Virus record (IMG/VR): IMGVR_UViG_3300037264_004886 | Span: 1 to 62,134 of that record | From: a virus | Taxonomy: Duplodnaviria > Caudoviricetes | Length of the DNA: 62,134 bases | Direction: 5' to 3' (one strand) | Part shown: piece after piece, positions 4,452 to 58,093 of the stretch | Layout: each line of letters begins with the position of its first letter | Position numbering within the stretch: the stretch's first letter is position 1 | Notes under the pieces: model-generated | The model's database searches: none | Told to the model about the DNA's origin: nothing | Seen by the model: only the letters and a program-made list of their open reading frames with translations | Program-made: the position numbers and the translations under genes

Positions 4452-4635
4452 ATCCTTACCTGCCAACAGGCTTGCCCAATATAACATTTCAAACGGTTTT
4501 TAGGACACGTCTTTTCTGTGCCTTTACATACGACACAATTCTTATTATTCAAAATCTCATTACTCATCAACTTACACCGATTAGTCATATTATGTAATGC
4601 GCTTTAATATGTATTAAAACTTTCTACAAAAAAAA

Positions 4636-41907: not shown

Positions 41908-42627
41908 TTAGATAAGTTTCAAAACTTTAACCCCGATCATCATTATACAAATAAGTAAACTAAAAACCAATATATATATTCCATATTTATTTAAATCTTC
42001 TTGTTTCGTTTGCTCCGAAAGTTTCGCCAACTGCCGGGTGTAACCGGCGAACGCCCCCATACTTTTAGGCGAGAATGCGGATCTTATCCGCAACCACGGT
42101 ACTGTTATAGTGGAGTCTATCGGGCAGGTTATCATTCCGGCTTGTAATAGCGCCCCAAATCTCAGCAGCGTATGGATTTCATCCGTTCCTGGGTGTGCCT
42201 CATTCCAGATAGTTACCGCTTTATCAATCTCTTGTCGTGCAGGACTGTCAAGTTCTGTCCATCTATCAGCATCAAGTATTAAATCTGCGGTTGTTTTTCC
42301 GATCATTCCTGATGGTGAGTAGTCCCACACTTTCTGGGCTTTTTTAGCTTGTTCTGGAGTTTCATTGAATATAAGCTTCGCTTTTTTTTCGCTTTTCAAA
42401 ACAAAATTTAAATTTGAATCGAATGTAAATGCGACTTGTTCGTGTCTGATGGCAGCATAAAACAAACCCCAGAGCGGCTTCAACGGACTCCAAAAAAGTA
42501 CGTGCCATCCGACGTAAGAACCGACTGCGGCAATAGCTAGCGCCAAGATGATCCAGTAGTAAACTTGTAATCCGAGCGCCAGAGTATTTAGAACCCCGCC
42601 AAAAAGCAAAACGGGCATTTTAATCAA
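41908..42627 (-). CDS. Membrane protein (N- and C-terminal TM); probable paralogue of 43662-44453
   Basis: Same topology; AFTFDSN vs AFMFGKN. Confidence 0.6.
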   Translation of the reverse strand: MIKMPVLLFGGVLNTLALGLQVYYWIILALAIAAVGSYVGWHVLFWSPLKPLWGLFYAAIRHEQVAFTFDSNLNFVLKSEKKAKLIFNETPEQAKKAQKVWDYSPSGMIGKTTADLILDADRWTELDSPARQEIDKAVTIWNEAHPGTDEIHTLLRFGALLQAGMITCPIDSTITVPWLRIRSAFSPKSMGAFAGYTRQLAKLSEQTKQEDLNKYGIYILVFSLLICIMMIGVKVLKLI

Positions 42628-42633
42628 CTCCGT

Positions 42634-43533
42634 TTAACACCATGCAACACCTTCAATCCAGTTATTACAGATGATCTTTACAAGCAATTCCTGTAATATT
42701 CTATCCATCAATTTCGTGGGGATGCCGAGATCGTTTAGTTTTGTAATGTCAAGTTGGTATGCGTGTTCGAGTTGTCCATCTGTGAGGATGTTGGTTGCGG
42801 TTTCTAATTGTATCGGATCTGATATTTTTGATTCAAGTAATTTTGTCATGTCGGTTCGTATTGTTTTTGTGTATTGTTCTCCAACATAGGCAAACTGGAT
42901 TGAGGCATCGTTTGCTTTCCTACCCTTTTTCCGCAAAACTTCTTTCCACGACTTTGCAGAACCGTAACTAAATAACCCACCGAGCTGTGGATCAACCGGA
43001 CCAAGACACGCGAATGCCCCCATAAATAATTGATCACAACTTAATGCAAGTATTGTCCCACCGGACATTGCATAAAATGGAACGAATGCCCGCACTTCTG
43101 CCCCGTAACTTTTTATTGCTTTAGAAAGCAGTTGTGTGTAAAACACATATCCCCCCGGTGTGTGTAAGATGAGATCAAATGGTTTCCCTTTAAATGATTG
43201 AAATGCCCGCTCAAGTTTGTGGAGTGTGGTCAGGTCGATCATTGATTGAGAAAACAACCCGGATTCAGTGTGTTTTATAAGTATTGTGTTACGTCCGGTT
43301 ATATTCTTAAATTTACGTAGAATGTATTTGACGTATAGATTTCCTATGATTGGTTTGATATATCCATCCCACATAAGCACAATCACAAAGAACGCCGAAA
43401 TTAAAGTAATAAGCATTAAAATAAGATATTGCGTCCATTCGGTAGTTGCCAGTACATTTACTTGTAATGGTATTCCCCCAGAACTCCGGGTGGCGTTGAT
43501 TATTGTCAGTATGTCTGCCGTTTCAAGTGTCAT
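42634..43533 (-). CDS. SDH/ClpP-crotonase-family serine protease, membrane anchored
   Basis: DLILHTPGG, VPFYAMSGGTILAL, LGPVDPQ. Confidence 0.85.
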   Translation of the reverse strand: MTLETADILTIINATRSSGGIPLQVNVLATTEWTQYLILMLITLISAFFVIVLMWDGYIKPIIGNLYVKYILRKFKNITGRNTILIKHTESGLFSQSMIDLTTLHKLERAFQSFKGKPFDLILHTPGGYVFYTQLLSKAIKSYGAEVRAFVPFYAMSGGTILALSCDQLFMGAFACLGPVDPQLGGLFSYGSAKSWKEVLRKKGRKANDASIQFAYVGEQYTKTIRTDMTKLLESKISDPIQLETATNILTDGQLEHAYQLDITKLNDLGIPTKLMDRILQELLVKIICNNWIEGVAWC

Positions 43534-43661: not shown

Positions 43662-44453
43662 TCATACTGGTCCCTTCCCGGCAGCGCCCGAAACGAACAG
43701 GAACGTAATTGCCATCGCGATTACTCCAGCACCTACGAACAGGAGTAGTTTAATGTTCTTTTCCCAGAACGATTCGTCCGGGATGTGGATGTTTAGTTCG
43801 TTTGATAATTTCAGGATCATCGCGCCGAACATTGCCGCCGTCCGGTTCCGGGGCGTGTACTTCTGGACTTCTTCGGGAGAATAGAGAGCGTAGATTGGAA
43901 TGGGTATTCCATCCGGGTATGCGCTCTCTAACGCCGGAATGAACGCCATGAAATCTAAATTGTTAGTTATGGCGATATCCGGGTTTTTCGTGTTAATCTC
44001 TTTTGCAATCCGGCACACTGCCATTTCGGAGATTGGGTCGCGGATACAATCAAAGTTATCGGACGCGATGAATACGGGTTTGAACCCGACTTTTCCGACA
44101 CTGGTGGGACTGGTCAGCATCCATTTACTAACGAGTGTTGGATCTTTGTAAGAGAGAATGCCATCAACGTATTCGAGCGCCTGGATTGAGAAAGAACGGT
44201 TCTTACCGAACATGAACGCTTGCTGCGTCTTGACTCCGGTGGCTTTACTTGCAACTCCGGCGCCTCGGACGGGTGCCATGATCATGAACTTAATAAACCA
44301 CCAGGCGTTAATTAGCACGACTGATAAGAACAGGACGAGAATAACAATCAACCACAACGGCATCGGTCCGAGTGTGATATCCATTATCGGATCGAACGCA
44401 GTATTTGGAGGCATCTGGTAAATATCTGCCATTATGGTGTCTCCCGATTCCAT
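43662..44453 (-). CDS. Membrane protein
   Basis: TM helices at both ends. Confidence 0.6.
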   Translation of the reverse strand: MESGDTIMADIYQMPPNTAFDPIMDITLGPMPLWLIVILVLFLSVVLINAWWFIKFMIMAPVRGAGVASKATGVKTQQAFMFGKNRSFSIQALEYVDGILSYKDPTLVSKWMLTSPTSVGKVGFKPVFIASDNFDCIRDPISEMAVCRIAKEINTKNPDIAITNNLDFMAFIPALESAYPDGIPIPIYALYSPEEVQKYTPRNRTAAMFGAMILKLSNELNIHIPDESFWEKNIKLLLFVGAGVIAMAITFLFVSGAAGKGPV

Positions 44454-45001: not shown

Positions 45002-45586
45002 TTATTTCTTCCCTCCGAGGATACTCAAAAATCCTTTTCGCTGTTCGGGCTGGTCGGGCATCTTCACGACACTCTCAGCGCCAGTCTTGTGTGTAATCCA
45101 TGCCGTCCGTTCTCTGATACCCTTGTCGGACAGGTCGCCACGGGATTTCGTTGCCAGGATTTTTATTATCCAGCGTTTGATTAACGCTTGCAAAATCTCT
45201 TCATTGCCCTCACCGTCTGCTACGTCTACAATTTCAATAAAGTCCCGGACCAGACGGTTGTATAAAACGTTGTCAAGGTTCGTAAACGTTAACTGTTCCA
45301 GTAAAGACGAACATTCCATTATCCACAACCCTTTCTGACTTTCTTGTGGGGATAACGTAACCGATACCAATCGGTTGAGAAAGTAAACGTCAATTCCCTG
45401 CGGGCGGGTATCGAACATTCCGGCGCCCAGACCTCGTTGCTGTTGCTGTTGCTGGATCTGTTGCTGCTGCATCTGCTGTTGATATTCAGCTTCGTCGGCG
45501 GCTTCGAGTAATTTCTGCTGGTCGGGGGGTAAATAAGGAACGCCCTCGGCTTCACATCTCAGTTTTCGTAAATCTTCAAGTCCCAT
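45002..45586 (-). CDS. Hypothetical protein with poly-Q tract
   Basis: GGAGG RBS; in the ATPase operon. Confidence 0.6.
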   Translation of the reverse strand: MGLEDLRKLRCEAEGVPYLPPDQQKLLEAADEAEYQQQMQQQQIQQQQQQRGLGAGMFDTRPQGIDVYFLNRLVSVTLSPQESQKGLWIMECSSLLEQLTFTNLDNVLYNRLVRDFIEIVDVADGEGNEEILQALIKRWIIKILATKSRGDLSDKGIRERTAWITHKTGAESVVKMPDQPEQRKGFLSILGGKK

Positions 45587-45712
45587 TTATTTTCCTCCGT
45601 CTTTCAGTCAATTCGTACAACGCCCAACACCACAGGGATACCCCGAAACACAATAATATTAAGTATAAGTATCCCGCAACGCCCATATCAGTTCCGTCAA
45701 GATTTACTACCA

Positions 45713-46075
45713 TCATTCCCCCCGGTCCATATACTTGAACGAATCATCAATCAGTTGTCCATATCCTCCGTGAACAAGTTCGCCCATGTGGTCTAATACG
45801 TGAGCACACACGAAATTGGAAGTCTCCCACTTCCCTACTTTATATAAGTTTTCGGCGTTCATACACAACCCCACACATTCGTCAAAGATTGGTTTGAACT
45901 CATCAAACTCCCCTGTAAGTTTCGATGCAATGATGAGTGCGGATACCAGGTTGCGAGTGTTCCCGGGTTTCCGGGACGGATCGATTCCGCGAGCGTTGAC
46001 ATAATGTGCCCCGATCTCCATTCGCAACTGCGTATTGATCTTTTTCTTTCTTTCTTCAAATGTTAAAAGCGCCAT
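45713..46075 (-). CDS. Hypothetical protein
   Basis: Overlaps the ATPase 3' end. Confidence 0.55.
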   Translation of the reverse strand: MALLTFEERKKKINTQLRMEIGAHYVNARGIDPSRKPGNTRNLVSALIIASKLTGEFDEFKPIFDECVGLCMNAENLYKVGKWETSNFVCAHVLDHMGELVHGGYGQLIDDSFKYMDRGE

Positions 46076-47228
46076 GTTTCACCGCGTGTTTACTCTTCTT
46101 TAATCGTATTTTCAGTTTGCCGAGAATGTCCAAACAGAGTTTCTGGTGGATTCCGAGATACGACGCCAGTCTTGCAACATTCGTATTCGGTTCGTCTGCG
46201 ATAAACTTCTGAATTTCAAGTTCGTATTTCATCGCCTGGTCTGCTACGTTCTGTTCGTGGAGGGTTGGACCTTCCCGCACTTTGTGTTTTGGTTTTGGTT
46301 TCTGCACCGGGTTCCGGAACGTCCCGGTCTCTACAATGCGTTTGTTGACGTCTAACGCAGATTGTTCGCGCTGTTTGTCGTATCCGACAATTAGTTCGGT
46401 TGGAGGTTTTAATGAAACCCAGAAATCTATTTTCCGTTTACCAAAACCCATACGACGGTTATACTCTTTCCCCAAAAACCCAATTTCAGATGAGTTGACT
46501 TTAACTAAATTGAATCCTCCAGCGTGAAACGATTTGTAGATGCTCATTGTAATATCGCACATTTCACGGACTTGGTTGTCGACGTGTTTTTTTAACGGAG
46601 CTGTGAGTAACAATATCCAGCGGTTCGTCCGGGCAACCGTCATTAACGCATTGAAGTTTCGGTTCTGTGGTGAGTTCCAACTTCGGTTACTGACTGCTAA
46701 ACTACAATCATCCACAATTACAATCTGATACTTTCCGGCATCCTTTAAAATTTGCATTACTCGGTCGGTATCTTCGAGGGTAGCGACGTGATTTAATGAA
46801 AAGTAATCTTTCCAATCTCCCCCCAACACTTTTGCAATTTCGTGTGCGATTCGATATGCAATCCACAACGCCGTATACGATTTCCCAGAACCTCGCCTGC
46901 CTTGAATGAATATGATTAAGTCCTGCCGGTCTGTACCAGTAACCCGTTTCGCCGCCCAGATACAGAACGGAGAATCTGGAACCGGGATTTGTTGTTTTTG
47001 GATCTCGGTTACATAGTTCGCCATTCGTTTAATGGCGCCTGGAGTAGCCGGACCCAAATCTATCAACCCGGTAATCCCGGGCACCCACGGGATGACTACT
47101 GGCGGAGGAGGGGGTGGTTTTGGAAACATCACGTCGTAATCATATTCTTCTACGGGCGCCGGGGCGATCTCTACGCCAATCTCTCCGTCATCTACGATTG
47201 GTTGATCTTCTATGTCGTCTTCCGTCAC
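46056..47228 (-). CDS. Zot-like / packaging-type P-loop ATPase
   Basis: GRRGSGKS, IVIVDD, R...ILLLTAP...VDNQVRE (Zot-like D..(I/V)R); C-terminal HTH-like segment. Confidence 0.75.
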   Translation of the reverse strand: MTEDDIEDQPIVDDGEIGVEIAPAPVEEYDYDVMFPKPPPPPPVVIPWVPGITGLIDLGPATPGAIKRMANYVTEIQKQQIPVPDSPFCIWAAKRVTGTDRQDLIIFIQGRRGSGKSYTALWIAYRIAHEIAKVLGGDWKDYFSLNHVATLEDTDRVMQILKDAGKYQIVIVDDCSLAVSNRSWNSPQNRNFNALMTVARTNRWILLLTAPLKKHVDNQVREMCDITMSIYKSFHAGGFNLVKVNSSEIGFLGKEYNRRMGFGKRKIDFWVSLKPPTELIVGYDKQREQSALDVNKRIVETGTFRNPVQKPKPKHKVREGPTLHEQNVADQAMKYELEIQKFIADEPNTNVARLASYLGIHQKLCLDILGKLKIRLKKSKHAVKHGAFNI

Positions 47229-47572
47229 AGCATCCCGCCCGTTGAGACCTCTTCAAACTCCAGCATTTCAGATAAGAAGCTGATCAGTTCGCCCACACAG
47301 AGAGTAGACGCCGATATAATATCCCCATCGTATTTATCTCGGGTTTCGGTATAGACTTGCCATAACTGTTTTCGTTTTTCGCGGTTCGGGCAGAATGCAA
47401 TTAACGCAGCTGTTGCTCCCTCAACACTCGCCTTGTCTTTTGTTACTACAGTTTCAAAATAGTTTTTTGCTAGCGATAGGAGAAAAAACGTATACATATT
47501 TTTCGGGGAGCCGTGCATCATATTCGACATCGGACCCATATCAATTTTAGATAATCCGGTAGAGTCTGCCAT
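47225..47572 (-). CDS. Hypothetical protein
   Basis: First gene of the ATPase operon, divergent from the capsid-like genes. Confidence 0.6.
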   Translation of the reverse strand: MADSTGLSKIDMGPMSNMMHGSPKNMYTFFLLSLAKNYFETVVTKDKASVEGATAALIAFCPNREKRKQLWQVYTETRDKYDGDIISASTLCVGELISFLSEMLEFEEVSTGGML

Positions 47573-47624: not shown

Positions 47625-47677
47625 TTTAAATACCATATCGTTCTTATTACTTTGTAAGCGAGGTGATTGAATACGAA
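47625..47677 (+). promoter_or_regulatory. TATA box plus 33-bp leader/RBS, duplicated at 48105-48156
   Basis: TTTAAATA at 47625 and 48105; TATTACTTTGTAAGCGAGGTGATTGAATACGAA at 47645 and 48124. Confidence 0.8.
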
Positions 47678-48071
47678 AATTAAAAAGATGCAGATGGTTC
47701 TTGCGCAAGGACTTCGCACTACGATTGACGAGCACGGGGTCACACAGGGAATCATGATGTTTGTGGTCGCGGCTGTAATGATCGCAATCATGCTCCCGGT
47801 GCTGAATGGTGTGATGACGGCGTCCCCGGTGCTTACTACAGATCCAATGATGGTTAATAATTTAACCAGTGGGGGGGTGCATGTAGCTGGTGCAAATGCC
47901 ACAGGATATGGAACTCTCACTACTAACGCCGCAATGGTATCAACCCAGAGCACAATGTGGACAACTATCGGTAGTTCCTACGGACTTCTCGTCGTAGTTT
48001 TAATCCTCATTGCTGCAGCAGTTATCCTCGGAGCTATCGGGCTCTTCCGGTACTTCGGTGGACAGGACTAA
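47667..48071 (+). CDS. Putative major capsid protein 1 (hydrophobic helical hairpin, spindle-virus-like)
   Basis: Basic leader ending DEHG, two long hydrophobic helices, glycosylation sequons in the linker; own promoter. Confidence 0.65.
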   Translation: MNTKIKKMQMVLAQGLRTTIDEHGVTQGIMMFVVAAVMIAIMLPVLNGVMTASPVLTTDPMMVNNLTSGGVHVAGANATGYGTLTTNAAMVSTQSTMWTTIGSSYGLLVVVLILIAAAVILGAIGLFRYFGGQD

Positions 48072-48145
48072 ACCCAATTAATCTCTCCTTTTTTTTCAAT
48101 AATCTTTAAATAGTATATACGTGTATTACTTTGTAAGCGAGGTGA

Positions 48146-48454
48146 TTGAATACGAATTTCAAAGCTATTGTTAAAGCCGGTCTCCGCAAGACTATGGGCG
48201 ACTACGGTGTGACGCAGGGAATTATGATGTTCGTGGTTGCCGCGATTATGATCGCCGTGCTGCTTCCTGTGCTCAATGGAGTGCTGACTGCAACCCCGGT
48301 GATCCTGACGGGTCCGCTCAACACCACGCAGCAAACTGTCAACACTACAATCGGTAGTGCGTATGGTCTGCTCGTAGTTGTGTTAATCCTCATTGCTGCA
48401 GCAGTTATCCTCGGAGCTATCGGGCTCTTCCGGTACTTCGGTGGACAGGAGTGA
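48146..48454 (+). CDS. Putative major capsid protein 2 (paralogue)
   Basis: Leader ending GDYG then VTQGIMMFVVAA; 68-bp identical 3' end with paralogue 1. Confidence 0.65.
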   Translation: MNTNFKAIVKAGLRKTMGDYGVTQGIMMFVVAAIMIAVLLPVLNGVLTATPVILTGPLNTTQQTVNTTIGSAYGLLVVVLILIAAAVILGAIGLFRYFGGQE

Positions 48455-48479
48455 AGTTGGAACAAATTTCCAACTTTTA
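48454..48479 (+). terminator. Hairpin after the capsid-like genes
   Basis: AAGTTGGAA-caaat-TTCCAACTT followed by T. Confidence 0.5.
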
Positions 48480-48557
48480 AAAATTTCTCTCTTTTAGGAA
48501 ACAACTTGTAAAGGTGTGACGCATACTATTATATACCTGTAACGCATACTATTATCT

Positions 48558-49241
48558 ATGGTTGCCGGTAAATGTTCTGATCCTATAAAAGAAGCAGAGC
48601 GCATTCGTAAAATGGCAGAAACAAAGCGTTCGCAACATAGGCGTGTCGTTCATTCAGAAGAAGCACGCAAAAAAATGTCGGAAGCTAATTTGGGTGTGAA
48701 ACACCATCAATATGGAAAGCCGATTTCTGATGAAGTAAAACAAAAAATATCAATAACAATGTCTGGTCGTAAACGTCCGCAAAGATCCCCCGAATGGTGT
48801 CGTAAAATATCAGAGGGGCATAAAGGTAAACGACATACAATGGAAACCCGCATGAAAATGTCTAAAGCTCAACTTGGAGAAAAAGCAAAGTTGTGGAAAG
48901 GGGGATTGTCTTATGGCTTGTATTGCAAAGATGCAAAACCGTCTTATAAGCGAGTCCGTGCATATTTCAGTCATTGTTGTGTTAGGTGTGGTCAACCACA
49001 AACAAAAGAAAAATTGTGTGTGCATCATGTAGATTATGATAAAGAAGCCGGTTGTAAAGGAAAGAAATTTTGGGCTGTAACTCTGTGTCGTTCGTGTCAT
49101 ACTGAAACCAACAACAACCGCGAATATTGGGAATCACAATTCAAAGAAATGATAACGAATTATTATGGTGGGAAATGTATGCTAACCGAACAAGAGTTTA
49201 AAGATTTATATTCGGTGATTCCGGATGTTATCACCCAATAA
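48558..49241 (+). CDS. NUMOD3-repeat HNH endonuclease
   Basis: HSEEARKKMSEA repeats; CVRC...LCVHHVDYDK...LCRSCH...N. Confidence 0.75.
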   Translation: MVAGKCSDPIKEAERIRKMAETKRSQHRRVVHSEEARKKMSEANLGVKHHQYGKPISDEVKQKISITMSGRKRPQRSPEWCRKISEGHKGKRHTMETRMKMSKAQLGEKAKLWKGGLSYGLYCKDAKPSYKRVRAYFSHCCVRCGQPQTKEKLCVHHVDYDKEAGCKGKKFWAVTLCRSCHTETNNNREYWESQFKEMITNYYGGKCMLTEQEFKDLYSVIPDVITQ

Positions 49242-50436
49242 GCACCTCCTCAATACAGACGTTCTCACAGCAGCTCGTGGTAGGATCTCCTGGATGTTCG
49301 ACACATTTGAGCGGGTGTGCGTAAGTTTCTCTGGGGGAAAAGACTCTTCGGTAATGTTTCACCTGGTAATGGAAGAGGCAATAAAGCGGGACCGTGTTGT
49401 TGGTGTTATGTTTGTAGATTGGGAAGTCCAGTTTACGCATACGATAGAGCACGTCCAGAAAATGTTTGATTTGTATAAAGAACATATTGAACCGTACTGG
49501 ATTGCGCTTCCGTTCAGGACAGAGAACTGCACCAGTATGTTTGAACCGGAGTGGATTTGTTGGGAGCCGGGTAAGAAGTGGGTTCGGGATGTGCCAGCAT
49601 CGGGAATAAATGATTACAAGCAGTTCCCGTTTTATACGTATCCGATGACGTTTGAAGAGTTTGTTCCGAAGTTTGGACAATGGTATAGTGACGGAAAATT
49701 AACTGCGGTGGTTGTTGGGATTCGGGCGGACGAATCGTTGCATCGATATAGCACGATAACATCACAGACCAAAACGCGGTTTGAGGATAAGGGATACACT
49801 ACACAACTGTCTGATAATGTGTATAACGTGTATCCGATTTACGATTGGAAAACTACCGACGTGTGGACGTATAACGGCAAGTATAATCGGTTATCAAACC
49901 CGCTGTATACGCTTATGTACCGTGCAGGGGTTCCGCTTCATAATATGCGAGTTGACGAACCGTTTGGTGAGAAACAGCGGAAGGGATTGTGGTTATACCA
50001 CATTTTAGATCCGATAATGTGGGCAAAAATAGTAGAGAGAATAAACGGTGCGAACTTCGGGGCGTTATACGTAAAAGAGCGGGGAAACATTCTTGGGAAT
50101 TACGGAGTAACAAAACCGGAGAGCCACACGTGGAAATCGTATGCAGAGTTGTTGTTAAATTCTATGCCAATAAAAACGGCGGAACACTATAAAAACAAAA
50201 TTGCTGTATACTTGCGATGGTATCAGGTACGTGACTATCCTGTGGGGATACCGGATTATCAGGACAACGATGTCGGTCCGAAAGATGCATATCCGAGTTG
50301 GAGGCGGGTTTGTAAGATTCTGTTACGGAATGATTACTGGTGTAAAGGATTGTCGTTCAGTGTCCAGAAATCTTCGGCAACAGAAAAATATTTGAAACTA
50401 ATGAAAATCAGGAGAGAACTATGGAATCTGATTTAA
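49225..50436 (+). CDS. ibrA: IbrA/YbdN-like PAPS-reductase-family protein (DUF3440)
   Basis: VSFSGGKDS, GIRADESLHR, YPIYDW, PSWRRVCK.LLRNDYWC. Confidence 0.85.
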   Translation: MLSPNKHLLNTDVLTAARGRISWMFDTFERVCVSFSGGKDSSVMFHLVMEEAIKRDRVVGVMFVDWEVQFTHTIEHVQKMFDLYKEHIEPYWIALPFRTENCTSMFEPEWICWEPGKKWVRDVPASGINDYKQFPFYTYPMTFEEFVPKFGQWYSDGKLTAVVVGIRADESLHRYSTITSQTKTRFEDKGYTTQLSDNVYNVYPIYDWKTTDVWTYNGKYNRLSNPLYTLMYRAGVPLHNMRVDEPFGEKQRKGLWLYHILDPIMWAKIVERINGANFGALYVKERGNILGNYGVTKPESHTWKSYAELLLNSMPIKTAEHYKNKIAVYLRWYQVRDYPVGIPDYQDNDVGPKDAYPSWRRVCKILLRNDYWCKGLSFSVQKSSATEKYLKLMKIRRELWNLI

Positions 50437-50930
50437 CGTGGACAAAAAAACATCCAGTATCAAATGTGGTGTGGGTTCCGACCGAAACCATATTTGCAAA
50501 TGATTACAATCCGAATACAGTTGCGCCACCGGAAATGAAACTATTAAAAATCAGTATTGAATCCGACGGGTTTACACAACCGATAGTAGTTTGGGAAACT
50601 TCGGCAGGGTATGAGGTTGTGGATGGATTTCATCGGCATCTTGTGGGAAAACAGATGGGGTTATCACACTTACCAATCGTGGTTATTAATAAGGAACGGG
50701 TGGAAAAAGGAAACCGAATTGCGTCAACAATTCGACACAACCGGGCGCGGGGAAAACATCTGGTATCCGGGATGAGCGAAATAGTACAAGAACTATCAAG
50801 ACGGAATTGGTCTGATGATAAAATCGGACGAGAGTTGGGGATGGAACCGGACGAAGTGTTGCGACTGAAACAAATAAGCGGGCTGGCAGAACTGTTTGCT
50901 GATAAAGAGTTTTCGCAAGCGTGGGAATAA
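50421..50930 (+). CDS. ibrB: IbrB/YbdM-like ParB/Srx-domain protein
   Basis: ANDYNPN.VAPPEM, VVDGFHR, STIRHNRARGKH. Confidence 0.85.
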   Translation: MESDLTWTKKHPVSNVVWVPTETIFANDYNPNTVAPPEMKLLKISIESDGFTQPIVVWETSAGYEVVDGFHRHLVGKQMGLSHLPIVVINKERVEKGNRIASTIRHNRARGKHLVSGMSEIVQELSRRNWSDDKIGRELGMEPDEVLRLKQISGLAELFADKEFSQAWE

Positions 50931-50960
50931 TTTTTATATTTCCACTTACTATTATCTCGT

Positions 50961-51449
50961 ATGCGAAAATTACCAATCATCTTATTCCTTTTACTGCTCG
51001 TTACTCCGGCACTGGCGAACCCGGACTTCACACCGATCATTAACGACCCGGCGCATTACAACATTTCGTATTCGTTGGCTACCAGTTCGGCAACTCCGTT
51101 TCCGTTGTGGTTGTTTGTAGCGATGCTCGGGCTGACGTTGCTGTTCGCTTCGTTCGTCTTGAAACTGGAGCAGGGGAATGATGTGTGTGCATTGATAGCA
51201 CCGTTACCGATACTGATAACCGCGTGGCAATCGTTGTCGATTGATATCGCTGGTGGGGCGGGGGTTGCGGCGTTATCGAACGGCACGAACACTTGGGTAC
51301 TCATGGAGAACCATATCATTTACAGCCCGGTAATCCTGGCGGTGTTCTTTGGGTTGTTGTTCATCATTTCACTACTAAACATTTACAGAATATATCTGAC
51401 GTCTAAAACGGTTGAAGGCGGCGAACAAAGCCCGCGTTTACGCACATGA
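50961..51449 (+). CDS. Membrane protein
   Basis: Signal peptide plus 3 TM helices. Confidence 0.6.
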   Translation: MRKLPIILFLLLLVTPALANPDFTPIINDPAHYNISYSLATSSATPFPLWLFVAMLGLTLLFASFVLKLEQGNDVCALIAPLPILITAWQSLSIDIAGGAGVAALSNGTNTWVLMENHIIYSPVILAVFFGLLFIISLLNIYRIYLTSKTVEGGEQSPRLRT

Positions 51450-52240
51450 AGACATTTGTATTCATTTGTATAGTATGGATGGCGGTACTGTTCGTAGTAG
51501 CGCCGGTGTTGGGGGCATTCCCTCCACCAGCAGCAGACTTTTCAGCAAACGAAACGTTGGTTTGTATTTATGACGTAATCCAGTTTACAGACACGTCGGT
51601 GTATTATGGTAGTCCGACGTGGTGGTGGTTGTTCGGAGATAGTCAGGATTCGCACGAAGAAAACCCCACGCATTATTATGATACCGTTGGTACGTATATG
51701 GTTCAATTATGGGTACATGATGCCTGGGGCGAAGATTGGGAGAACAAGACGGCGTACATTACGGTCCGGGATTGTTACAGTGCGGATTTCACGGCAAACT
51801 CGACGTGCAGTATCGGGAAACCAAAGGTAGTAACTTTCAATGAAACCGGGACGCCGTGTGTTTTTGACGGAGACCCCGGGAAATCGGGATGGGAAATCTC
51901 ATCTTACACTGATTGGATGTACTGGAATGGGACCGATTGGGTTGTAGATGCCAACGGTATTTTTGATGGGAGTGACAGCCACGACAACAATGCAATTATC
52001 AACTTCACAGAATATGGCACATATACTGTAACACATACTTGTATGTTCCCTCCTCCGATTGGGTCGGGGTCTACAACCAAAACAGATTACATTATTGTAG
52101 GGGTAAACGGCACGTATTGTTCCGGGGGTGTGGCATGTTCGGGGGGCGGGATGGTCCAGACAGATTGGTTGCCGGTTGCGGTAGTGCTGGCGTTCGTTCC
52201 AATCTGGTTTTTGATAATGTTCGTCAGCAACAAAAGATAA
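51446..52240 (+). CDS. PKD-domain surface protein with C-terminal anchor
   Basis: ADFSAN...QFTDTS...W.FGD...ENP.H.Y...G.Y.V.L. Confidence 0.75.
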   Translation: MKTFVFICIVWMAVLFVVAPVLGAFPPPAADFSANETLVCIYDVIQFTDTSVYYGSPTWWWLFGDSQDSHEENPTHYYDTVGTYMVQLWVHDAWGEDWENKTAYITVRDCYSADFTANSTCSIGKPKVVTFNETGTPCVFDGDPGKSGWEISSYTDWMYWNGTDWVVDANGIFDGSDSHDNNAIINFTEYGTYTVTHTCMFPPPIGSGSTTKTDYIIVGVNGTYCSGGVACSGGGMVQTDWLPVAVVLAFVPIWFLIMFVSNKR

Positions 52241-53127
52241 ATAATACTTCTTTTCTATATTTGGTATATGCCAAATTATCGTGACCTGTTGAGCGTTCAG
52301 ATTATTTTCGGTGCGGTGTTTACGTTGCTGGCGGGAATTATTGCTGTCAACATAACCACGTTTTTGCAATGGAACCAGAACACTATTAATGCGTTACTGT
52401 TTGCGTTCATTGTGATGTACCTGTTGAAAGACGGAGTACCGAACTTAATTCTGGGGTTGCAGGAATACTTTACACCGAAAGAGAACCGAAGTGTTGATCA
52501 GAAAAAACAAGGAATGATGGAGGATTAAAATGGGAGAAGGAAGAAGTTTTACAGAAGAAGAAGTTAAAGAGATGATGAACCGACAAGCGCTGAACATCAA
52601 CCTCAACAATTTCTTTGTGCGGGCACTAAGCAACCCACAGGCAATCGGACTAACCAAAGAAGAGCGGGACGCCGGGGACTATGCATATCGGGTGTTTATG
52701 GCTCCTCCCCAGGCACAACCACAGAAAACCGAAAGTTCGGACGGTCCGGGAACGGATTAAGAGCGATTATATGTCCGAGATGAGTTTGAGAGACGATGGG
52801 TTCAATGCGGTGTATGCGATTCTAGCAATACTACTCGAAGGTGCGTGTTGGTTTACATTGGTAACCGAAACCGTGACATTGCTGGACGTTTTCATAATTA
52901 CCGTGATAATGGTGGCAATTCCGATTTGGTGGGGTTTCTGTTCGTTCAGTGTGACGGACACTCCGCATAAAATCCCATCATAACTTTCTCTTTTTTCAAT
53001 CAACAACAAAGTTTATATTCATAATAAACGTATATACGTATATGCGTTTAGAGAACAGGTGTAAATACCTTAAATCTGATTGTGAGGGCGCAATGCTTAC
53101 GTGTGAAGACAAATCAGATGAAGGTGT

Positions 53128-53370
53128 GTGTCCGAAATCCCGGAACCGTTGGGTTATAACTACGGCGTGTTGGAGGATAAAGAAATGATATACGACCACA
53201 CTACACTTGCAGTAACGGAATTAACCCGGTATTTGTTCCGACAAGTGGCTGTCAAAAAGGGAATGTTTCTTTATAATTATCTGGAAGAACTCGCGAAAGC
53301 CGAAGCTCTTAAAGAGGGTATAAAAATATCCCAAGAGGTACAAAATGAGGTACAGAATGAACCTTCATAA
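53128..53370 (+). CDS. Possible ribbon-helix-helix regulator
   Basis: TTLAV followed by two short helices; palindrome upstream at 53026-53049. Confidence 0.4.
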   Translation: MSEIPEPLGYNYGVLEDKEMIYDHTTLAVTELTRYLFRQVAVKKGMFLYNYLEELAKAEALKEGIKISQEVQNEVQNEPS

Positions 53371-53564
53371 ACTATTGGCGTGGATATTGCTTTCTGTGGG
53401 CGTTCTGTTCGGTGCGATAGTTCTGTTCTACGCCGGGTATATGCAGACACATGACTTGATACGGGCGGGTGTGTCGGCAGTTGTGTTGACTATGGTGGTG
53501 TGTGGTGTTGCAGCACTTGTCTTTTACAAGCGACCGGATCCGCTTGCACCCGCTGAGTACGGAG

Positions 53565-55265
53565 ATGATGATAACGATGACGATAACTAAAAAACAACTG
53601 TGGCAAGCGGTAATTGATATCGGGTTCTGGGGGGGGTTGATTTTCGTGTTGATATTAACGGTTGCGGTGTGCTCTCCCGCCCACGCAAATATCAATATCA
53701 CCCCATATCCAACCGAAACTCCCACAATAACGTATACGTTCACTCCGATACCTACCACGACAATCCCCACGGTAACCTATACCCAGTTACCGACCCCGAG
53801 CACGACAATAGTGGTCCAACCAACCAATCTTACGTCACCATCAGTAGAACCGATAAAACGGATTGAGCAGGGCGAGACCGTCTATCTCGGAGACACCTAC
53901 GATATTTCAGGAGTTGTCGGGTGGGCGACATACCTGGCGTGGTATAACAGTTACGAGCCGGAGCCGGGCGTAACCCCGTGGACGTTACAACTCCCGAACA
54001 CTAAAAAGGGGTACTATATGTTTTACATCGACCCACTAGTATTCTCTGATAAGTTGGGCGACTGGTATCAGTATTATGGAAATTATGAAAGTGCCGGGAA
54101 CCTACGGGCGTTCCGGGTAGCCCCCGCGAGCGAGAAACCGATAACGTATATGAATGTCACTGAGAACAAAACAATTGCCGAAAACAAAACCGCTGAGAAG
54201 CCGTGGTTACCGGTCCGGCACGTTGCCGATTACCTGATTGCCCGGGGGGACTCGTTTAATATCACGGTTAACAGTCCGACTACAATGTGGCTGTTCGGGA
54301 CGAACACCGGGATTTACGATACCAAATCGTTTAATGGAACCATCCAAATTAACGCCAGCGTGATGAACTCGTTGGAACCTGGAAGGTATAGGTTACTGTT
54401 GCAAACCTACGGGCAGAACATTGACGATTTCACGATGCGGTATAACGTAGAAACCCAAAAACTCGAATGGTTTGATTTCAAGAATTTTCTGGTTTACAAA
54501 TGGGACGTGTCTGGGTATTCTCCGCAAGTTCTATACAACAAGATAATCGAGATCCGCCCGCAACTGATTGATACGTTCTCCGAATATACATTCGAGCTGC
54601 AGGAACCGTCAGTCAGTATCACGCAAATCGATCCGAGAACCGTATCAGAATACGGACATCTGATGAGTGGGCAGGAATACGTCAACAACCAGACGTATTT
54701 GGATATTCGCGGGTATACGAACGTCGCCCCAGGAACGAAACTATACTTTGTAATTGACGAAGATAAACAAACTCCGCTTACGATTAACCGAAGCACCATT
54801 ACGGGCGAAGTATGGGGGGAGTATGGAGGAGATATGCGATACTTCGTTTCGGTTGTGCCGGTCGACAAGTACGGTGCGGGGATCGGACAACATGAAATAA
54901 CTGTCACAACGGCGCTGGGGGGTAGTTCGATTGTACCGTATTACGTTTACGACGCTCCGGTGGGTACTTACGTCAGGGACAAACCCATAAGATATATTGC
55001 GGGGAGGATTGGGGACACAGAGTTCGTCCAGACGCCCACTCCGGAAATAATCGTAAAAGAAGTGACGAAACAAGTTACGGTTATCAGAACAGTTACGATC
55101 CCGGTTACTCCGAGTAAAGATTTTGTGCGGGCGCAGCAAGACGCTGTGATTACGGATAAGATTTGGTTCTACGGAAAATGGGTGTTAGGACTGATTGGTG
55201 CCGGGTTGGTTGTCGGATACATCGGATGGGTTGTGGTGCGGGCGCGACGGGGGAAGAAGGAATGA
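53565..55265 (+). CDS. Surface glycoprotein, DUF3821-like, Thr-Pro linker, C-terminal TM anchor
   Basis: I.QGETVYLGDTYDISGV resembles Methanomicrobiales DUF3821 proteins; TM at both ends. Confidence 0.55.
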   Translation: MMITMTITKKQLWQAVIDIGFWGGLIFVLILTVAVCSPAHANINITPYPTETPTITYTFTPIPTTTIPTVTYTQLPTPSTTIVVQPTNLTSPSVEPIKRIEQGETVYLGDTYDISGVVGWATYLAWYNSYEPEPGVTPWTLQLPNTKKGYYMFYIDPLVFSDKLGDWYQYYGNYESAGNLRAFRVAPASEKPITYMNVTENKTIAENKTAEKPWLPVRHVADYLIARGDSFNITVNSPTTMWLFGTNTGIYDTKSFNGTIQINASVMNSLEPGRYRLLLQTYGQNIDDFTMRYNVETQKLEWFDFKNFLVYKWDVSGYSPQVLYNKIIEIRPQLIDTFSEYTFELQEPSVSITQIDPRTVSEYGHLMSGQEYVNNQTYLDIRGYTNVAPGTKLYFVIDEDKQTPLTINRSTITGEVWGEYGGDMRYFVSVVPVDKYGAGIGQHEITVTTALGGSSIVPYYVYDAPVGTYVRDKPIRYIAGRIGDTEFVQTPTPEIIVKEVTKQVTVIRTVTIPVTPSKDFVRAQQDAVITDKIWFYGKWVLGLIGAGLVVGYIGWVVVRARRGKKE

Positions 55266-55906
55266 ACGAACCATTATATCCACACGAACAAGCAATAAAT
55301 TGGATTGAAAACCACCCTTTCAAAGGTTTTTTATTTTTGATGGTGTTTATTTTTGTTATCACCGTGTTTATCCTCGTGCTTATAGTTATGGCAAACACTC
55401 CGGGAAATTTTGTATATGATTCGCAACCACATTGGACGATCTGTATGATAAATGGTTCTTACCGAGGGTGTTACAAATGACAACTCCCGAGTACCGCGAG
55501 ATGTGCATGTGCAACGGGAAGGTACAGCACCCGTCCCGGAACGCAGCGAGGATGGCAAGAAAAGGATTGGTGCGAAAGCATCCGGGAACCGGGATAAGCG
55601 TTTATAAGTGCCCGTTCTGTAAGTGGTGGCACGTCGGGAGGGATCGGAAATGAACTTTCCATTCTTCAAAAAGAAACCAACCGCCCCACAAAAACCACAA
55701 CTCCAGAGCTCTAAGCAACCACCGAAACTTAAGATGCCTGTAAAAGGTGTTGGCATTTCAACGCTATTGCACTTTAAACCGATTCGGAATGCTTATTTGA
55801 ATATTATCATAGGGGATGTGAAAAAGGTGCTTAAACGTGATGAAAAGAGTATGCAAGATAAAATGGAGTATGAAGATTTCATGGAACAGCATTTCGGGAG
55901 GTTCCG

Positions 55907-56451
55907 ATGATAAGTCGCGAACTTAAAATCAAAATGCTTTTTGTTGGAACCGCGATACTCCTCTTAATCATTGCCATAAATGGCTTTAATCTTCTTAGCT
56001 CGCAGCAGTACTATGAACAAAAACTTCACGACAAACAAGTCGATTGTGATCTCTGTTTGAAAACCAGTTCTGAATGCTATAACAACTGCACGCTTGTTGG
56101 CAGGGACGGAACCGTAATTTCATTCTCTCCGAAATTCATAACTCAAAATTTAACGTGGGGGTTCAAATGATTAAAAAACTTGTTGCACTTGCCAACAAAT
56201 ATCAAATTGTGGTTGCGTTCATTTGTTTCCTGATAGCGATAGCAACCATCCATACTGTCGGTATGGACTTGTTGGAACGATCCACATTAAACCCGGAGTG
56301 GACAGAACGCATCGATGCAGAGAACACAAACTGTAATCTGTGCCTGGCGCAGTTCCCGCAAACGAACTGTACGGTTGATAGCACTACCCGGGCGTGTGAA
56401 GCGTTAAAAGATTACTGTGTGGGGAATTGTACGAGAACGGCATACACATGA
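55907..56451 (+). other. Two paralogous TM-anchored Cys-rich proteins (55907-56170, 56167-56451)
   Basis: CDLCL...NCT and CNLCL...NCT. Confidence 0.55.
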
Positions 56452-56496
56452 AAAGCATACACAAGATATTTAAGCATACACTACCGTTATAAGTGT

Positions 56497-56775
56497 ATGC
56501 TAAAAAATGAGCGTGGCATACGCATTACAAAAGAGTTGAGAGATAAGATCAAACACAATGCGAGCATACACAAAATGAGTATGTGCGAATATTTGGAGAG
56601 GATAACAATCATGGATAACCAACCAGATATTATTGATTCCGAGCGAGTGAAATTATTAACTGATGAGCAACTCAAAAGTCATCTTGCCGCATACAACAGA
56701 ATGGTGTGTGAAGTGCAAGAACTTCAAAAAGGAATCGCAGAATTGCAAGCAACGCTGGATTGCCAAAGGTTATGA
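56497..56775 (+). CDS. Ribbon-helix-helix-like regulator with coiled coil
   Basis: GIRITKELRDKIK..A....SM.EYLE; GCATACAC repeats over its promoter. Confidence 0.55.
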   Translation: MLKNERGIRITKELRDKIKHNASIHKMSMCEYLERITIMDNQPDIIDSERVKLLTDEQLKSHLAAYNRMVCEVQELQKGIAELQATLDCQRL

Positions 56776-57215
56776 CCAAACTATTCTGGGGTATAAATTC
56801 ATACTTTACCCTATGTGATATCTGCGGAAATCAAGTTGTTGGAGGGCGGTTCAAACGCGGATATCACACATGTTCACCAGAATGTAATAAAAAGAAGTGG
56901 GATAACTGGAGTAAAATAATTATAGAAGAGGAGAAAAACGCAACCGGCATCAGACCAAAACTGTTTTGGCAGTCCATATCAAGAGAATGTTTAGTGCGTG
57001 ATGGATGGACGTGTCAGAAATGTGGTATCACCCAAGATCAGCTTATCAAACGCGGTGTTGATAATATGCTGCATTGCCATCATAAGAGACAAATAAAAGA
57101 CGGGGGTTCCAACAAACTTGAAAATCTAATAACTCTGTGCCCACAATGTCACAAAGAAGAGCATTCCCGTATAGGGAAAATTAAACGAATGCATCGCCAG
57201 CTGGTGTTTAAATGA
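56772..57215 (+). CDS. HNH endonuclease
   Basis: RDGWTCQKC...HHK...GGSN..ENLITLCPQCH. Confidence 0.85.
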   Translation: MTKLFWGINSYFTLCDICGNQVVGGRFKRGYHTCSPECNKKKWDNWSKIIIEEEKNATGIRPKLFWQSISRECLVRDGWTCQKCGITQDQLIKRGVDNMLHCHHKRQIKDGGSNKLENLITLCPQCHKEEHSRIGKIKRMHRQLVFK

Positions 57216-57817
57216 TCCCGGGTAATTATGTCTTTAGCGTGGCATTTTTCATCACGTTAGTATATGCTTCGTATCTAGATATCAAAACCAGAGTTGTTCC
57301 GTTTAAAACGTGGACTCCTATAATTGCTATTGGAATTGTTTACACATCTGAGTATCTAATCACAATGGGATATTTTGTCAATGGTGTTCTGTGGGGGTTA
57401 ATTGTTGTTTTGTTTTTGTATGCTAGATTTAATCAATCCATAAAACTGTACCACATCTTATCTATTCTCATCGTTTTTGGAGTAGTGGCGTATTTTCTTC
57501 CATCACAGTATATTTTATTTCTCTGTTTGATATGTGGGTTGTTTTACACGTTGGGGTGTTTAAATGTTATTGGGGGGGCTGATGCGTGGGTGCTTATATT
57601 CATTACATTATTCTCTCCAGAAAACCAATATCTATCTATAACTGTATTTATAATCGCGGTTTTTATTACTGTGTTTTGTTTGATAATAGTTTCGATAATA
57701 AAACACTTGTCTCATTCGGATGTTAAAAGTCTGTTAATAACATACAAAATTCCATTTATTATTCCTATTACTGTTGGGTACATTTTGATACAAATATTTA
57801 TATGGTTATGGAGTTGA
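57212..57817 (+). CDS. A24-family prepilin/prearchaellin peptidase (PibD/FlaK-like)
   Basis: YASYLDIKTRVVP (first Asp), IGGADA (GxD), C-terminal IPFIIPI..G; polytopic. Confidence 0.8.
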   Translation: MIPGNYVFSVAFFITLVYASYLDIKTRVVPFKTWTPIIAIGIVYTSEYLITMGYFVNGVLWGLIVVLFLYARFNQSIKLYHILSILIVFGVVAYFLPSQYILFLCLICGLFYTLGCLNVIGGADAWVLIFITLFSPENQYLSITVFIIAVFITVFCLIIVSIIKHLSHSDVKSLLITYKIPFIIPITVGYILIQIFIWLWS

Positions 57818-57826
57818 TTTAGCGTT

Positions 57827-58093
57827 ATGACGGTTTCAAAATTAATCTTCGCAGTAGCGATTGTGTTTATGATGGTTATCGGTATCGGGTTTGCGATTGT
57901 AAACCTTTCATCAGTTACGATAACCGACACGTATGGTTCAGCGCCCTCGTCTACAGTAAATGACACTACGGCAATGCTGACGAACGTAACAGCCGTCGGG
58001 CAGTCTGCCGGGACGGGGTTGTTGCTGGTAATAGCGGCACTGTTGGTAATGACGGCGGTTGGATTGTTGATTGTATACGGGAGGTCTAAATGA
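57827..58093 (+). CDS. 88-aa hydrophobic hairpin protein, capsid-like
   Basis: Two hydrophobic helices with Thr/Ser linker; GLLLVIAALLV resembles the MCP C-terminal helix. Confidence 0.5.
   Translation: MTVSKLIFAVAIVFMMVIGIGFAIVNLSSVTITDTYGSAPSSTVNDTTAMLTNVTAVGQSAGTGLLLVIAALLVMTAVGLLIVYGRSK

Follow-up and report, generated by a model that had tools for sequence, protein, structure and literature searches.

Spindle-shaped capsids are found only among archaeal viruses, and how they are built is an open problem. For the fusellovirus SSV1, a published study reports that the mature capsid protein VP1 begins at a conserved Glu, that the five residues upstream of the processing site are essential and that replacement of the Glu by Gln or Ala is tolerated; the protease is described there as unknown, a viral enzyme, a cellular enzyme or VP1 itself being possible (Iverson 2017, PMC5748691). 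The present analysis concerns an entire IMG/VR virus record, IMGVR_UViG_3300037264_004886, of 62,134 bases, classed as linear and about 73% complete according to CheckV; this whole stretch is called the window below. It carries two tandem genes for small membrane hairpins (47667-48071 and 48146-48454), which are probably capsid proteins of the VP1 type, together with a FlaK-like peptidase of the A24 class (57212-57817). The N-terminal extensions of the hairpins end in a conserved junction that appears to imitate the class III signal peptide junctions of the likely hosts, and the virus-encoded peptidase may participate in their removal.

Class III signal peptides follow described rules: Gly at position -1 is critical, positions -2 and -3 are usually basic, and Gly at +3 matters for FlaK (PMC4187195; PMC3387779). 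PibD, the sole prepilin-type peptidase of Sulfolobus, is permissive (PMC4187195), and a pibD disruptant fails to support SSV9, which the authors explain by the loss of pili (PMC7217056). An archaeal virus that employs the same pathway is the pleolipovirus SNJ2, which is reported to encode type IV pilins that are processed by the host PibD (Xiang et al. 2025, PMC12426801). For the large spindle viruses of ANME-1, one publication describes a dual arrangement of major capsid proteins (MCPs) and a structural arm of the genome split from an enzymatic arm (PMC9894754). In the open-access papers and preprints searched, no link between VP1 and a prepilin peptidase was found.

Tandem hairpin proteins, probably of the VP1 type

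The genes at 47667-48071 and 48146-48454 are tandem paralogues encoding two-helix membrane hairpins, in each of which the second hydrophobic helix lies near the C-terminus. The duplication takes in an upstream block of 40 nt (93% identity) and a block of 112 nt at the 3' side (89% identity). In a first-pass annotation of this DNA, made from the sequence alone, the two products were called capsid-like, and this description has gained support: they can be read with considerable confidence as capsid proteins of the VP1 type from a spindle-shaped virus of archaea because of a His1-like gene order, an ATPase common to spindle viruses and weak similarity to SSV1 VP1.

Like SSV1 VP1 and His1 VP21, the window proteins are small two-helix hydrophobic hairpins with a loop carrying N-glycosylation sequons, and in all these cases the gene lies by a DnaA-like AAA+ ATPase and is followed by signal-plus-anchor membrane proteins. 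The layout of His1 is shared in its details, with the ATPase on one strand, then the divergent two-helix gene ORF21 and then the signal-plus-anchor proteins; ORF21 is VP21, the major capsid protein. When the window ATPase was compared by tblastn with the GenBank phage and archaeal-virus records, nine records matched, eight of them Sulfolobus spindle-shaped viruses and one Haloferax LSV-48N, and all nine (9/9) are spindle or lemon-shaped viruses. The long paralogue aligns with the SSV1 VP1 precursor in BLASTP at E 6e-4, over a region that includes the common glycosylation-sequon loop. Its Smith-Waterman score against VP1 is 64, reached by 0/1000 global and 1/1000 block shuffles, a range similar to that of the accepted pair SSV1 VP1-His1 VP21 (score 67, reached by 0/1000 shuffles). 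The short paralogue is weaker, its score being reached by 22/1000 block shuffles against VP1 and by 103/1000 against VP21.

A further likeness to SSV1 VP1 is the N-terminal extension on the precursor, whose removal is known in SSV1 (PMC5748691). The window differs from SSV1 and His1 in having tandem paralogues of unequal loop length, a methanogen-lineage host and no profile match, and in a genome of at least 62 kb as against the 14-24 kb of the fuselloviruses and His1. In its dual capsid genes and in the separation of a structural from an enzymatic arm, it resembles the ANME-1 spindle viruses as described (PMC9894754).

The hairpin family comprises 48 homologues among 102 candidates from a collection of 5.8 billion proteins, all metagenomic and unnamed. 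Neither the window hairpins nor these homologues belong to a Pfam, PHROG or NCBIfam family (for the window hairpins, no Pfam match at E <= 0.1), a search of PDB sequences with the hairpin profile gave nothing meaningful, and no relatives were recovered from the IMG/VR scan, the initial genome-contig scan or blastn and tblastn searches of GenBank phage records. Distant homologues of 115-121 aa (E 1e-5 to 7e-4) are found in 4 of 301 Methanomicrobiales genomes (L042-L046), carry E-[SD]-[AG] ahead of the first helix and are possibly provirus capsid genes. It was also observed that the N-terminus of their first helix resembles the N-terminus of mature fusellovirus VP1. An AlphaFold2 model built from a 34-row alignment (32 homologues and both window proteins) consists of long helices at 3-49 and 57-99, with a mean pLDDT of 75.9. 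In an RNA-library run, one contig lies over the short hairpin gene (48246-48634, 22 differences), possibly through DNA carry-over. The identification of the hairpins as true pilins was considered and rejected, the two-helix architecture being wrong and no pilin model matching.

The length of the N-terminal extension in this virus is uncertain, because the listed start of both open reading frames (ORFs) is a TTG directly preceded by an in-frame TGA. Depending on the start chosen, the leader of the first gene has 24 aa (TTG) or 17 aa (next ATG) and that of the second 21 or 5 aa, and forms of 86 aa, as from the internal ATG of the second gene, occur among database gene calls. Relatives that start with ATG or GTG still encode an extension of 19-25 aa, conserved at the protein level. 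Both window starts sit in a conserved G-A-G-G-T-G-A-T-T-G block (47660-47669 and 48139-48148). In the protein alignment, the called start of some relatives is a GTG that precedes the window TTG by one codon; a frame shift at the very beginning of the gene may therefore separate the window copies from these relatives.

A conserved junction in the style of the likely host

Both hairpins had been said to possess a charged leader ending in G and followed by an identical hydrophobic start; the quoted strings are indeed present in the translations, and the pattern extends throughout the family. After two N-terminally truncated proteins and one motif variant missed by the pattern had been dropped from the 48 homologues, 45 junctions were counted. 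Position -1, before V-T-Q-G, is G in 43/45 and A in 2/45, so that all 45 have G or A there; position -3 is D or E in 40/45; at position -2 the residues H, Y, A, F, E and G occur, with K or R in 0/45. The string V-T-Q-G-I-M-M-F is nearly invariant across the 45 proteins. Seventeen proteins have an extension of 25 aa and 13 have one of 22 aa, these being the commonest lengths. Since positions -1 and -3 and V-T-Q-G-I-M-M-F are conserved in 45 homologues, the junction is considered to be under selection and not a chance resemblance. The hairpins share with class III substrates a polar leader running straight into a hydrophobic helix and the presence of G or A at -1; they lack the basic residue at -2 or -3 of the general archaeal rule. 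The combination of Gln at +1 and an acid at +5 that is typical of EppA substrates (PMC4187195) is not seen in them.

For comparison, a hand tally was made of junctions in five Methanoregula/Methanomicrobiales genomes, those in which the closest cellular relatives of the peptidase are encoded. Among the Pilin_N proteins (17 loci, 16 junctions), an acid occupies -3 in 14 and -2 in the other 2, K or R is at -2 in none, -1 is A in 12 and G in 4, +1 is V in 15 and I in 1, and +2 is S in all 16. The archaellins (11 loci, 11 junctions) have an acid at -3 in 10, K or R at -2 in 1, and G in 4 or A in 7 at -1. When both groups are pooled, an acid is at -3 in 24/27 and K or R at -2 in 1/27. The local host style, as deduced from position, is acid-x-[GA], followed in pilins by V-S; the viral capsid junction is acid-x-G followed by V-T. 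The viral junction thus appears to be a specific, conserved mimic of host class III junctions, although the Pilin_N model finds no match. The proposal that the hairpins carry a pilin-type leader is supported in the style of the likely host lineage: acid at -3 and G/A at -1 agree with 24/27 host junctions. The canonical K/R at -2 is present in 0/45.

Of 1610 start/stop combinations in the window, only 5 show the host-style pattern, defined as an acid at -3, G or A at -1 and, beginning within six residues, a hydrophobic 16-mer. These 5 sites are confined to the structural module at 45.5-55.3 kb, and 2 of them belong to the capsid genes. A FlaFind-like pattern matched no window ORF.

A parallel was found in the fuselloviruses, for which the VP1 regions of SSV1 and ten further viruses were compared (11 in total; L022-L032, e.g. 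L022:12567-13001). That VP1 is N-terminally processed had been stated from the outset and is experimentally known (PMC5748691); for SSV1 the processing was established decades ago. The residues before the mature Glu are [KR]-[GA] in 11/11, with -1 being G in 6 and A in 5. This site reads as a basic-type class III junction as described for archaeal substrates (PMC4187195). The short-leader VP1 proteins (SSV2, SSV7, SSV-RH and SSV19) have strongly basic leaders of 11-17 residues, and the VP1 genes of SMF1 and SSV17 look mis-started, because the open frame extends beyond their annotated start and includes the site in that upstream part. His1 VP21 has D-D-G before V, after an N-terminus of 7 residues. 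The window junction, an acidic residue at -3, then x and G, differs from the fusellovirus [KR]-[GA] before a conserved Glu.

The virus-encoded A24 peptidase

The A24 peptidase gene reported at 57212-57817 is real. Its product exceeds the curated threshold of Pfam Peptidase_A24 (PF01478; E 1e-7; score 32.8 bits, threshold 26.5), also in a six-frame search, and both catalytic Asp residues are kept: D23 and G121-G122-A123-D124 are invariant in an alignment with 11 cellular homologues and correspond to the motifs of FlaK. The membrane motifs near the N-terminus and the C-terminus are likewise invariant. A profile of the peptidase with its cellular homologues matches the FlaK structure 3s0x at E 5.2e-14. 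Given the intact motifs, the enzyme is predicted with good confidence to be catalytically active. It resembles FlaK of Methanococcus (PDB 3S0X) and PibD in the two catalytic Asp, the G-x-G-D-type motif and the N-terminal and C-terminal membrane motifs; it differs in being virus-encoded and in having only 201 aa, as against 263-267 aa in the nearest cellular relatives, since it is devoid of their soluble insert of ~80 residues and contains an extra membrane insert instead. The protein has no NCBIfam match of its own and lacks what defines the FlaK equivalog NF040695 (330 bits, soluble domain); its cellular relatives score best against the NCBIfam FlaK model, below the cut-off (26-71 bits against 330). 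The AlphaFold2 model has nine helices and a low mean pLDDT of 57.3.

The nearest cellular forms come from metagenome-assembled genomes (MAGs) of Methanomicrobium and Methanomicrobiales, and 9/9 genome-contig loci are from Methanoregula, Methanomicrobiales or Methanomicrobiaceae MAGs. Methanomicrobiales are the likely hosts of the virus. An exhaustive search of representatives yielded 47 proteins at E <= 1e-3. Short A24 peptidases of 150-205 aa without the soluble domain also occur in metagenomes (P0063, P0064, P0073, P0078, P0079 and P0084), and among these the extra membrane insert of the viral enzyme is seen only in P0063 and P0064.

The gene stands beside an HNH endonuclease gene in a low-GC stretch (GC of 0.388 at 56-58 kb). 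Four sequencing runs, all consisting of contigs, were compared with the window. A contig of 2172 bases from the probable source-sample run covers 55697-57868 with zero differences; it is not independent, because that run probably is the source sample. In an independent sediment run, contigs of relatives 85-95% identical cover 29/30 bins of 45.0-58.5 kb, and the sole uncovered bin, 57177-57627, lies inside the peptidase; this is not evidence of absence, because no contig joins across.

The first-pass annotation had also placed a third hairpin next to the peptidase and had supposed that the element matures its own coat subunits with type IV pilin machinery. The adjacency (10 nt) and the two-helix hairpin fold of the third protein are correct. 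This protein lacks a leader. It is of another family, with no cross-match to the capsid hairpins and with homologues inside the structural modules of L008 and L010. The notion of self-contained machinery is not supported: a six-frame search of the record, itself ~73% complete, found no T2SSE (PF00437) or T2SSF (PF00482), and the Pilin_N and archaellin (Arch_flagellin) models match nothing in it. Because the record holds no pilin or archaellin, the peptidase is left without a canonical viral substrate.

Proposed maturation route and its alternatives

The route favoured here would begin with two tandem genes, each with its own copy of the 40-nt upstream block, which would encode VP1-type hairpin capsid proteins. 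The precursors would be inserted in the membrane with a cytoplasmic N-terminal extension ending in the host-style class III junction. An A24 GxGD peptidase would then cut the extension off at the cytoplasmic face of the membrane, so that the hairpin could be built into the capsid lattice; for SSV1 VP1, such processing is known to be a requirement. The host's own enzyme would do the cutting in most relatives; in this virus a captured, stripped-down FlaK-like peptidase would act as an auxiliary for its own class III-like membrane proteins, with the capsid proteins as the chief candidates. Removal of the leader by an A24-type enzyme is judged to be somewhat on the probable side, and the whole chain, with a role for the viral enzyme, to be slightly less likely than not. 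The genes, their motifs with the conservation of these, the synteny and the host-style junction are observed; the capsid role, the topology in the membrane, the cleavage and its exact site and the pairing of enzyme with substrate are inferred.

Among described systems, SNJ2 is comparable as an archaeal virus that contributes one part of the type IV filament pathway and depends on class III processing; in that case viral pilins that form pili are combined with a host peptidase (PMC12426801), whereas here a viral peptidase occurs with no recognizable pilin and capsid proteins are the proposed substrates. The ClpP/S49-type prohead proteases of tailed phages provide another likeness, as virus-encoded proteases that trim the N-terminus of the MCP before or during assembly, and the window too encodes a ClpP-like protease. 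The proposed system would differ from these in the intramembrane aspartyl class of the enzyme, the other capsid fold and the accessory, not core, status of the gene.

Several findings weigh against this route. With respect to the substrate, the +3 Gly is missing, Gly being +4 in V-T-Q-G-I; no Pfam pilin or class III model matches the hairpins; and the leader of 19-25 aa is partly conserved and roughly neutral in charge, in comparison with archaellin leaders of typically 6-12 aa (PMC4187195). The Methanococcus FlaK has been reported to be archaellin-specific (PMC4187195), and for the host pilins and archaellins used in the comparison, the points of cleavage were assigned by position, not measured. 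When SSV VP1 is included in a multiple alignment, its known site of cleavage falls ahead of the conserved acid, 3 residues on the upstream side of G|V, where -1 is G, A or S in only 15/45 homologues, and a pairwise alignment with SSV1 VP1 sets it at another conserved Gly, 10 residues upstream; because the alignments place it 3 or 10 residues upstream, the exact cleavage site is uncertain. As for the capsid role, hhalign comparisons of profiles with VP1 and VP21 are not significant (probabilities 1%, 25% and 0.6%), and the Foldseek check that had been suggested gave nothing specific for a helical hairpin, the model returning nothing at E <= 0.001 from PDB and BFVD and only generic helical hairpins in the top rows.

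The distribution of the peptidase weighs in the same direction. Co-occurrence in relatives had been suggested as a check, and the gene is present in 0/18 related loci by tblastn; L008 and L013 span hairpin, DUF3821 homologue and ATPase without it, with 7.9 kb and 14 kb of these contigs unseen. A word-indexed search of the 5.8 billion proteins returned only its own identical cluster and 11 cellular-type proteins, and only two of the 47 proteins from the exhaustive search are short forms with the extra insert (170 aa, 46% identity; 205 aa, 32% identity). No relative was found in IMG/VR, in GenBank phage records (tblastn) or in PHROGs. The peptidase is an accessory singleton gene and not a trait of the virus lineage. 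The leader is present equally in relatives that have no viral peptidase, so that the enzyme of the host must be enough for them and the viral one is at most auxiliary. A predicted complex of the peptidase with the short hairpin precursor scored 0.01 against a mark of 0.32 in a run with no controls, and counts neither way.

The main rival takes the A24 enzyme to be an auxiliary gene of host origin that acts not on the capsid but on host pilins and archaellins or on other small viral membrane proteins. It could serve to remodel receptor filaments, to exclude superinfection or to aid release, the capsid leaders being cut by the host or left uncut; viral targets could be the ORFs at 55262-55480, 45576-45716 and 52681-52983. 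This explanation seems rather unlikely, and it has several observations to draw on. The peptidase is most closely related to cellular enzymes of the FlaK-like type from Methanomicrobiales; its gene stands as a singleton next to that of an HNH endonuclease in low-GC DNA, and the related loci do without it. The product of 55262-55480, encoded on the same strand 1.7 kb upstream of the peptidase, has the textbook junction with a basic residue at -2 and G at -1, and SNJ2 offers a precedent for an archaeal virus that meddles with type IV pili (PMC12426801). However, the 62 kb contain no gene for a pilin, archaellin, assembly ATPase or platform protein. The small candidate substrates, perhaps not real genes, lack homologues in the related loci, and among the viral proteins whose host-style junction is conserved, the capsid proteins are the most abundant.

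It is less likely again that the extension is retained as an amphipathic helix of the mature capsid protein, with a role at the membrane surface, as a scaffold or facing the DNA, and with the Gly marking a helix boundary. Its length and several positions well upstream of the junction are conserved, the AlphaFold2 model shows it continuous with helix 1, some database calls have only 5 residues before the Gly and His1 VP21 only 7, and the enzyme-substrate pairing receives no support from the complex prediction, which is itself given no weight. Against retention stand the processing of SSV1 VP1, where neither the extension nor the five residues ahead of the cleavage site can be dispensed with (PMC5748691), the restriction of -1 to G or A in 45/45 homologues, and the fact that the junction copies that of host pilins through +2.

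That the hairpins are small membrane proteins of another kind, either holin-like or similar to conjugative pilins of the VirB2/TraA/CedA type, in an element perhaps without spindle virions, is improbable. Helical hairpins are generic, and no fold or profile match to any capsid protein is significant; but this explanation would leave aside the His1-like gene order, the ATPase shared only with spindle and lemon-shaped viruses and the pairwise similarity to SSV1 VP1 that includes the glycosylation-sequon loop. It also fits poorly with the tandem duplication, which includes the upstream block and recalls the dual MCPs reported for ANME-1 spindle viruses (PMC9894754), and no VirB4-type or secretion ATPase was seen in the record. 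Finally, it is very improbable that capsid maturation is performed by the ClpP-like serine protease of the SDH type instead of the A24 enzyme, since this protease, for all its strong family match, its weak similarity to the ClpP-related head maturation proteases of tailed phages and its place inside the conserved module beside genes common to all relatives, is likewise absent from relatives and is of a soluble type with no known preference for membrane-embedded junctions; G or A at -1 fits an A24 enzyme.

Genomic context

The window was compared by tblastn, using all ORFs of at least 60 aa, with 18 related metagenomic loci (those named individually bear labels such as L002). A module of conserved order emerges, consisting of 41908-42627, 43662-44453, 45002-45586, 45713-46075, the ATPase (46056-47228) and 47225-47572, followed by one or two hairpin genes, often by an HNH/NUMOD3 gene, and then by the membrane proteins 50961-51449, 51446-52240 and 52268-52528 and the DUF3821 protein (53502-55265). 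The ATPase gene is conserved in L002, L004, L005, L008, L012 and L013. The region 41.9-58.1 kb is probably the structural module of a large, non-tailed, most likely spindle-shaped virus of Methanomicrobiales. The individual features are collected in Table 1.

Table 1. Features of the window discussed in the text, in order of position.
Feature	Coordinates	Strand	Remarks
Giant ORF, 1585 aa	7690-12447	-	glycine-rich, LamG-like, four PKD domains; C-terminal part and downstream genes kept in L008, L009, L013, L014
ClpP-like SDH-type serine protease	42634-43533	-	PF01972 E 8.8e-34; NCBIfam NF047768 E 1.8e-37
46-aa membrane protein	45576-45716	-	host-style class III-like junction after 12-residue leader (pattern scan)
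AAA+/P-loop 'DnaA-like' ATPase	46056-47228	-	phrog_5484 E 3.9e-14; Pfam Zot E 5.8e-7; divergent from the capsid genes
Conserved 115-aa module protein	47225-47572	-	98% identical in L002 and L012; 69-70% in L003-L005; no Pfam or PHROG match
Capsid-type hairpin, long paralogue, 134 aa from TTG	47667-48071	+	extension of ~24 aa, helix 1, loop with N-glycosylation sequons, helix 2
Capsid-type hairpin, short paralogue	48146-48454	+	102 aa from TTG, or 86 aa from internal ATG
NUMOD3/HNH homing-endonuclease-like gene	48558-49241	+	Pfam NUMOD3 E 9.6e-14; directly after the capsid genes
Conserved multi-pass membrane protein	50961-51449	+	90% identical in L002; in L004, L005, L007, L008, L010, L013, L014, L018
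PKD-domain surface protein, N-terminal signal and C-terminal anchor	51446-52240	+	PKD_4 E 4.9e-13; conserved in L002, L004, L005
Small membrane ORF, putative gene	52681-52983	+	host-style class III-like junction (pattern scan); no Pfam family
DUF3821-domain glycoprotein-like protein, C-terminal anchor	53502-55265	+	DUF3821 E 4.7e-7; homologues in L008, L010, L013, L014
72-aa single-pass membrane ORF	55262-55480	+	ATG overlaps stop of DUF3821 gene; Cys-containing tail
HNH endonuclease	56760-57215	+	Pfam HNH E 5e-11; stop overlaps peptidase start (ATGA)
Short-form A24 (GxGD) aspartyl peptidase, FlaK-like, 201 aa	57212-57817	+	Pfam PF01478; D23 and D124
Third two-helix membrane hairpin, 88 aa	57827-58093	+	begins 10 nt past the peptidase stop; no N-terminal extension
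Giant ORF, at least 1219 aa	58475-62134	-	runs off the end of the record; no family match

Several members of the module deserve comment. The ClpP-like protein, a second accessory protease, has a weak match to a ClpP-related head maturation protease, and its gene is missing from L004, L008 and L013, where the homologues of both flanking module genes are adjacent. NUMOD3/HNH-like genes come after the capsid genes also in L002, L004, L005 and L017. Between the capsid and membrane-protein genes, the window has a PAPS-reductase-like gene and an overlapping gene with a ParB-like nuclease domain (49225-50930, + strand); this pair is regarded as an insertion because in the close relative L002 the HNH-like gene directly precedes the homologue of 50961. 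The pattern scan placed an acid-x-G junction also ahead of the N-terminal hydrophobic segment of the DUF3821 protein. In a relaxed scan, the ORF at 55262-55480 showed the canonical junction, basic at -2 and G at -1, before a very hydrophobic helix; it has no family and no homologue in the 18 related loci.

Across the record, family matches include a primase-polymerase that also has a helicase domain, an SF2 helicase, a radical SAM protein, a weak PCNA-like match, giant proteins with PKD, LamG and glycine-rich regions, the PAPS-reductase and ParB pair and several HNH/NUMOD3 endonucleases. Homing-endonuclease-like genes of the HNH/NUMOD3 type are located at 3387-4487 (- strand), 48558-49241 (+) and 56760-57215 (+), the last of them coupled in translation to the peptidase gene. 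Terminase, portal and HK97-type capsid families found no match among the 40 window ORFs scanned with Pfam or the 24 scanned with PHROGs, and the identification of the record as a tailed virus was rejected because none of these families was matched among the 40 ORFs in the Pfam scan. A scan for promoters and terminators of the bacterial type gave 24 sites against 24.6 expected and is uninformative for an archaeal virus.

Implications for spindle-shaped viruses

A broader reading can be put forward tentatively, in which the VP1-type capsid proteins as a class are disguised class III substrates whose junction has been copied from the host. The junction style would then vary with the lineage, being [KR]-[GA] before Glu in the Sulfolobus fuselloviruses and acid-x-G before Val in the present family of methanogen viruses and in His1; the protease of SSV1 VP1 would be PibD, and the window would represent the first case of a virus capturing and miniaturising such a peptidase for capsid maturation.

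The combination of a spindle-type virus that carries an A24 enzyme, and whose capsid leaders imitate the pilin junctions of its host, with a [KR]-[GA]|E site in 11/11 fuselloviruses makes a class III signal peptidase a concrete, cheaply testable candidate for the VP1 protease, namely PibD in Sulfolobus and FlaK-like enzymes in methanogens. If this is true, capsid morphogenesis would be tied to the maturation pathway of type IV filaments, the failure of pibD mutants to support SSV9 (PMC7217056) could be explained in a second way, and intramembrane aspartyl peptidases would join the maturation enzymes encoded by viruses. The main value of the finding is that the old question of the VP1 protease becomes directly testable.

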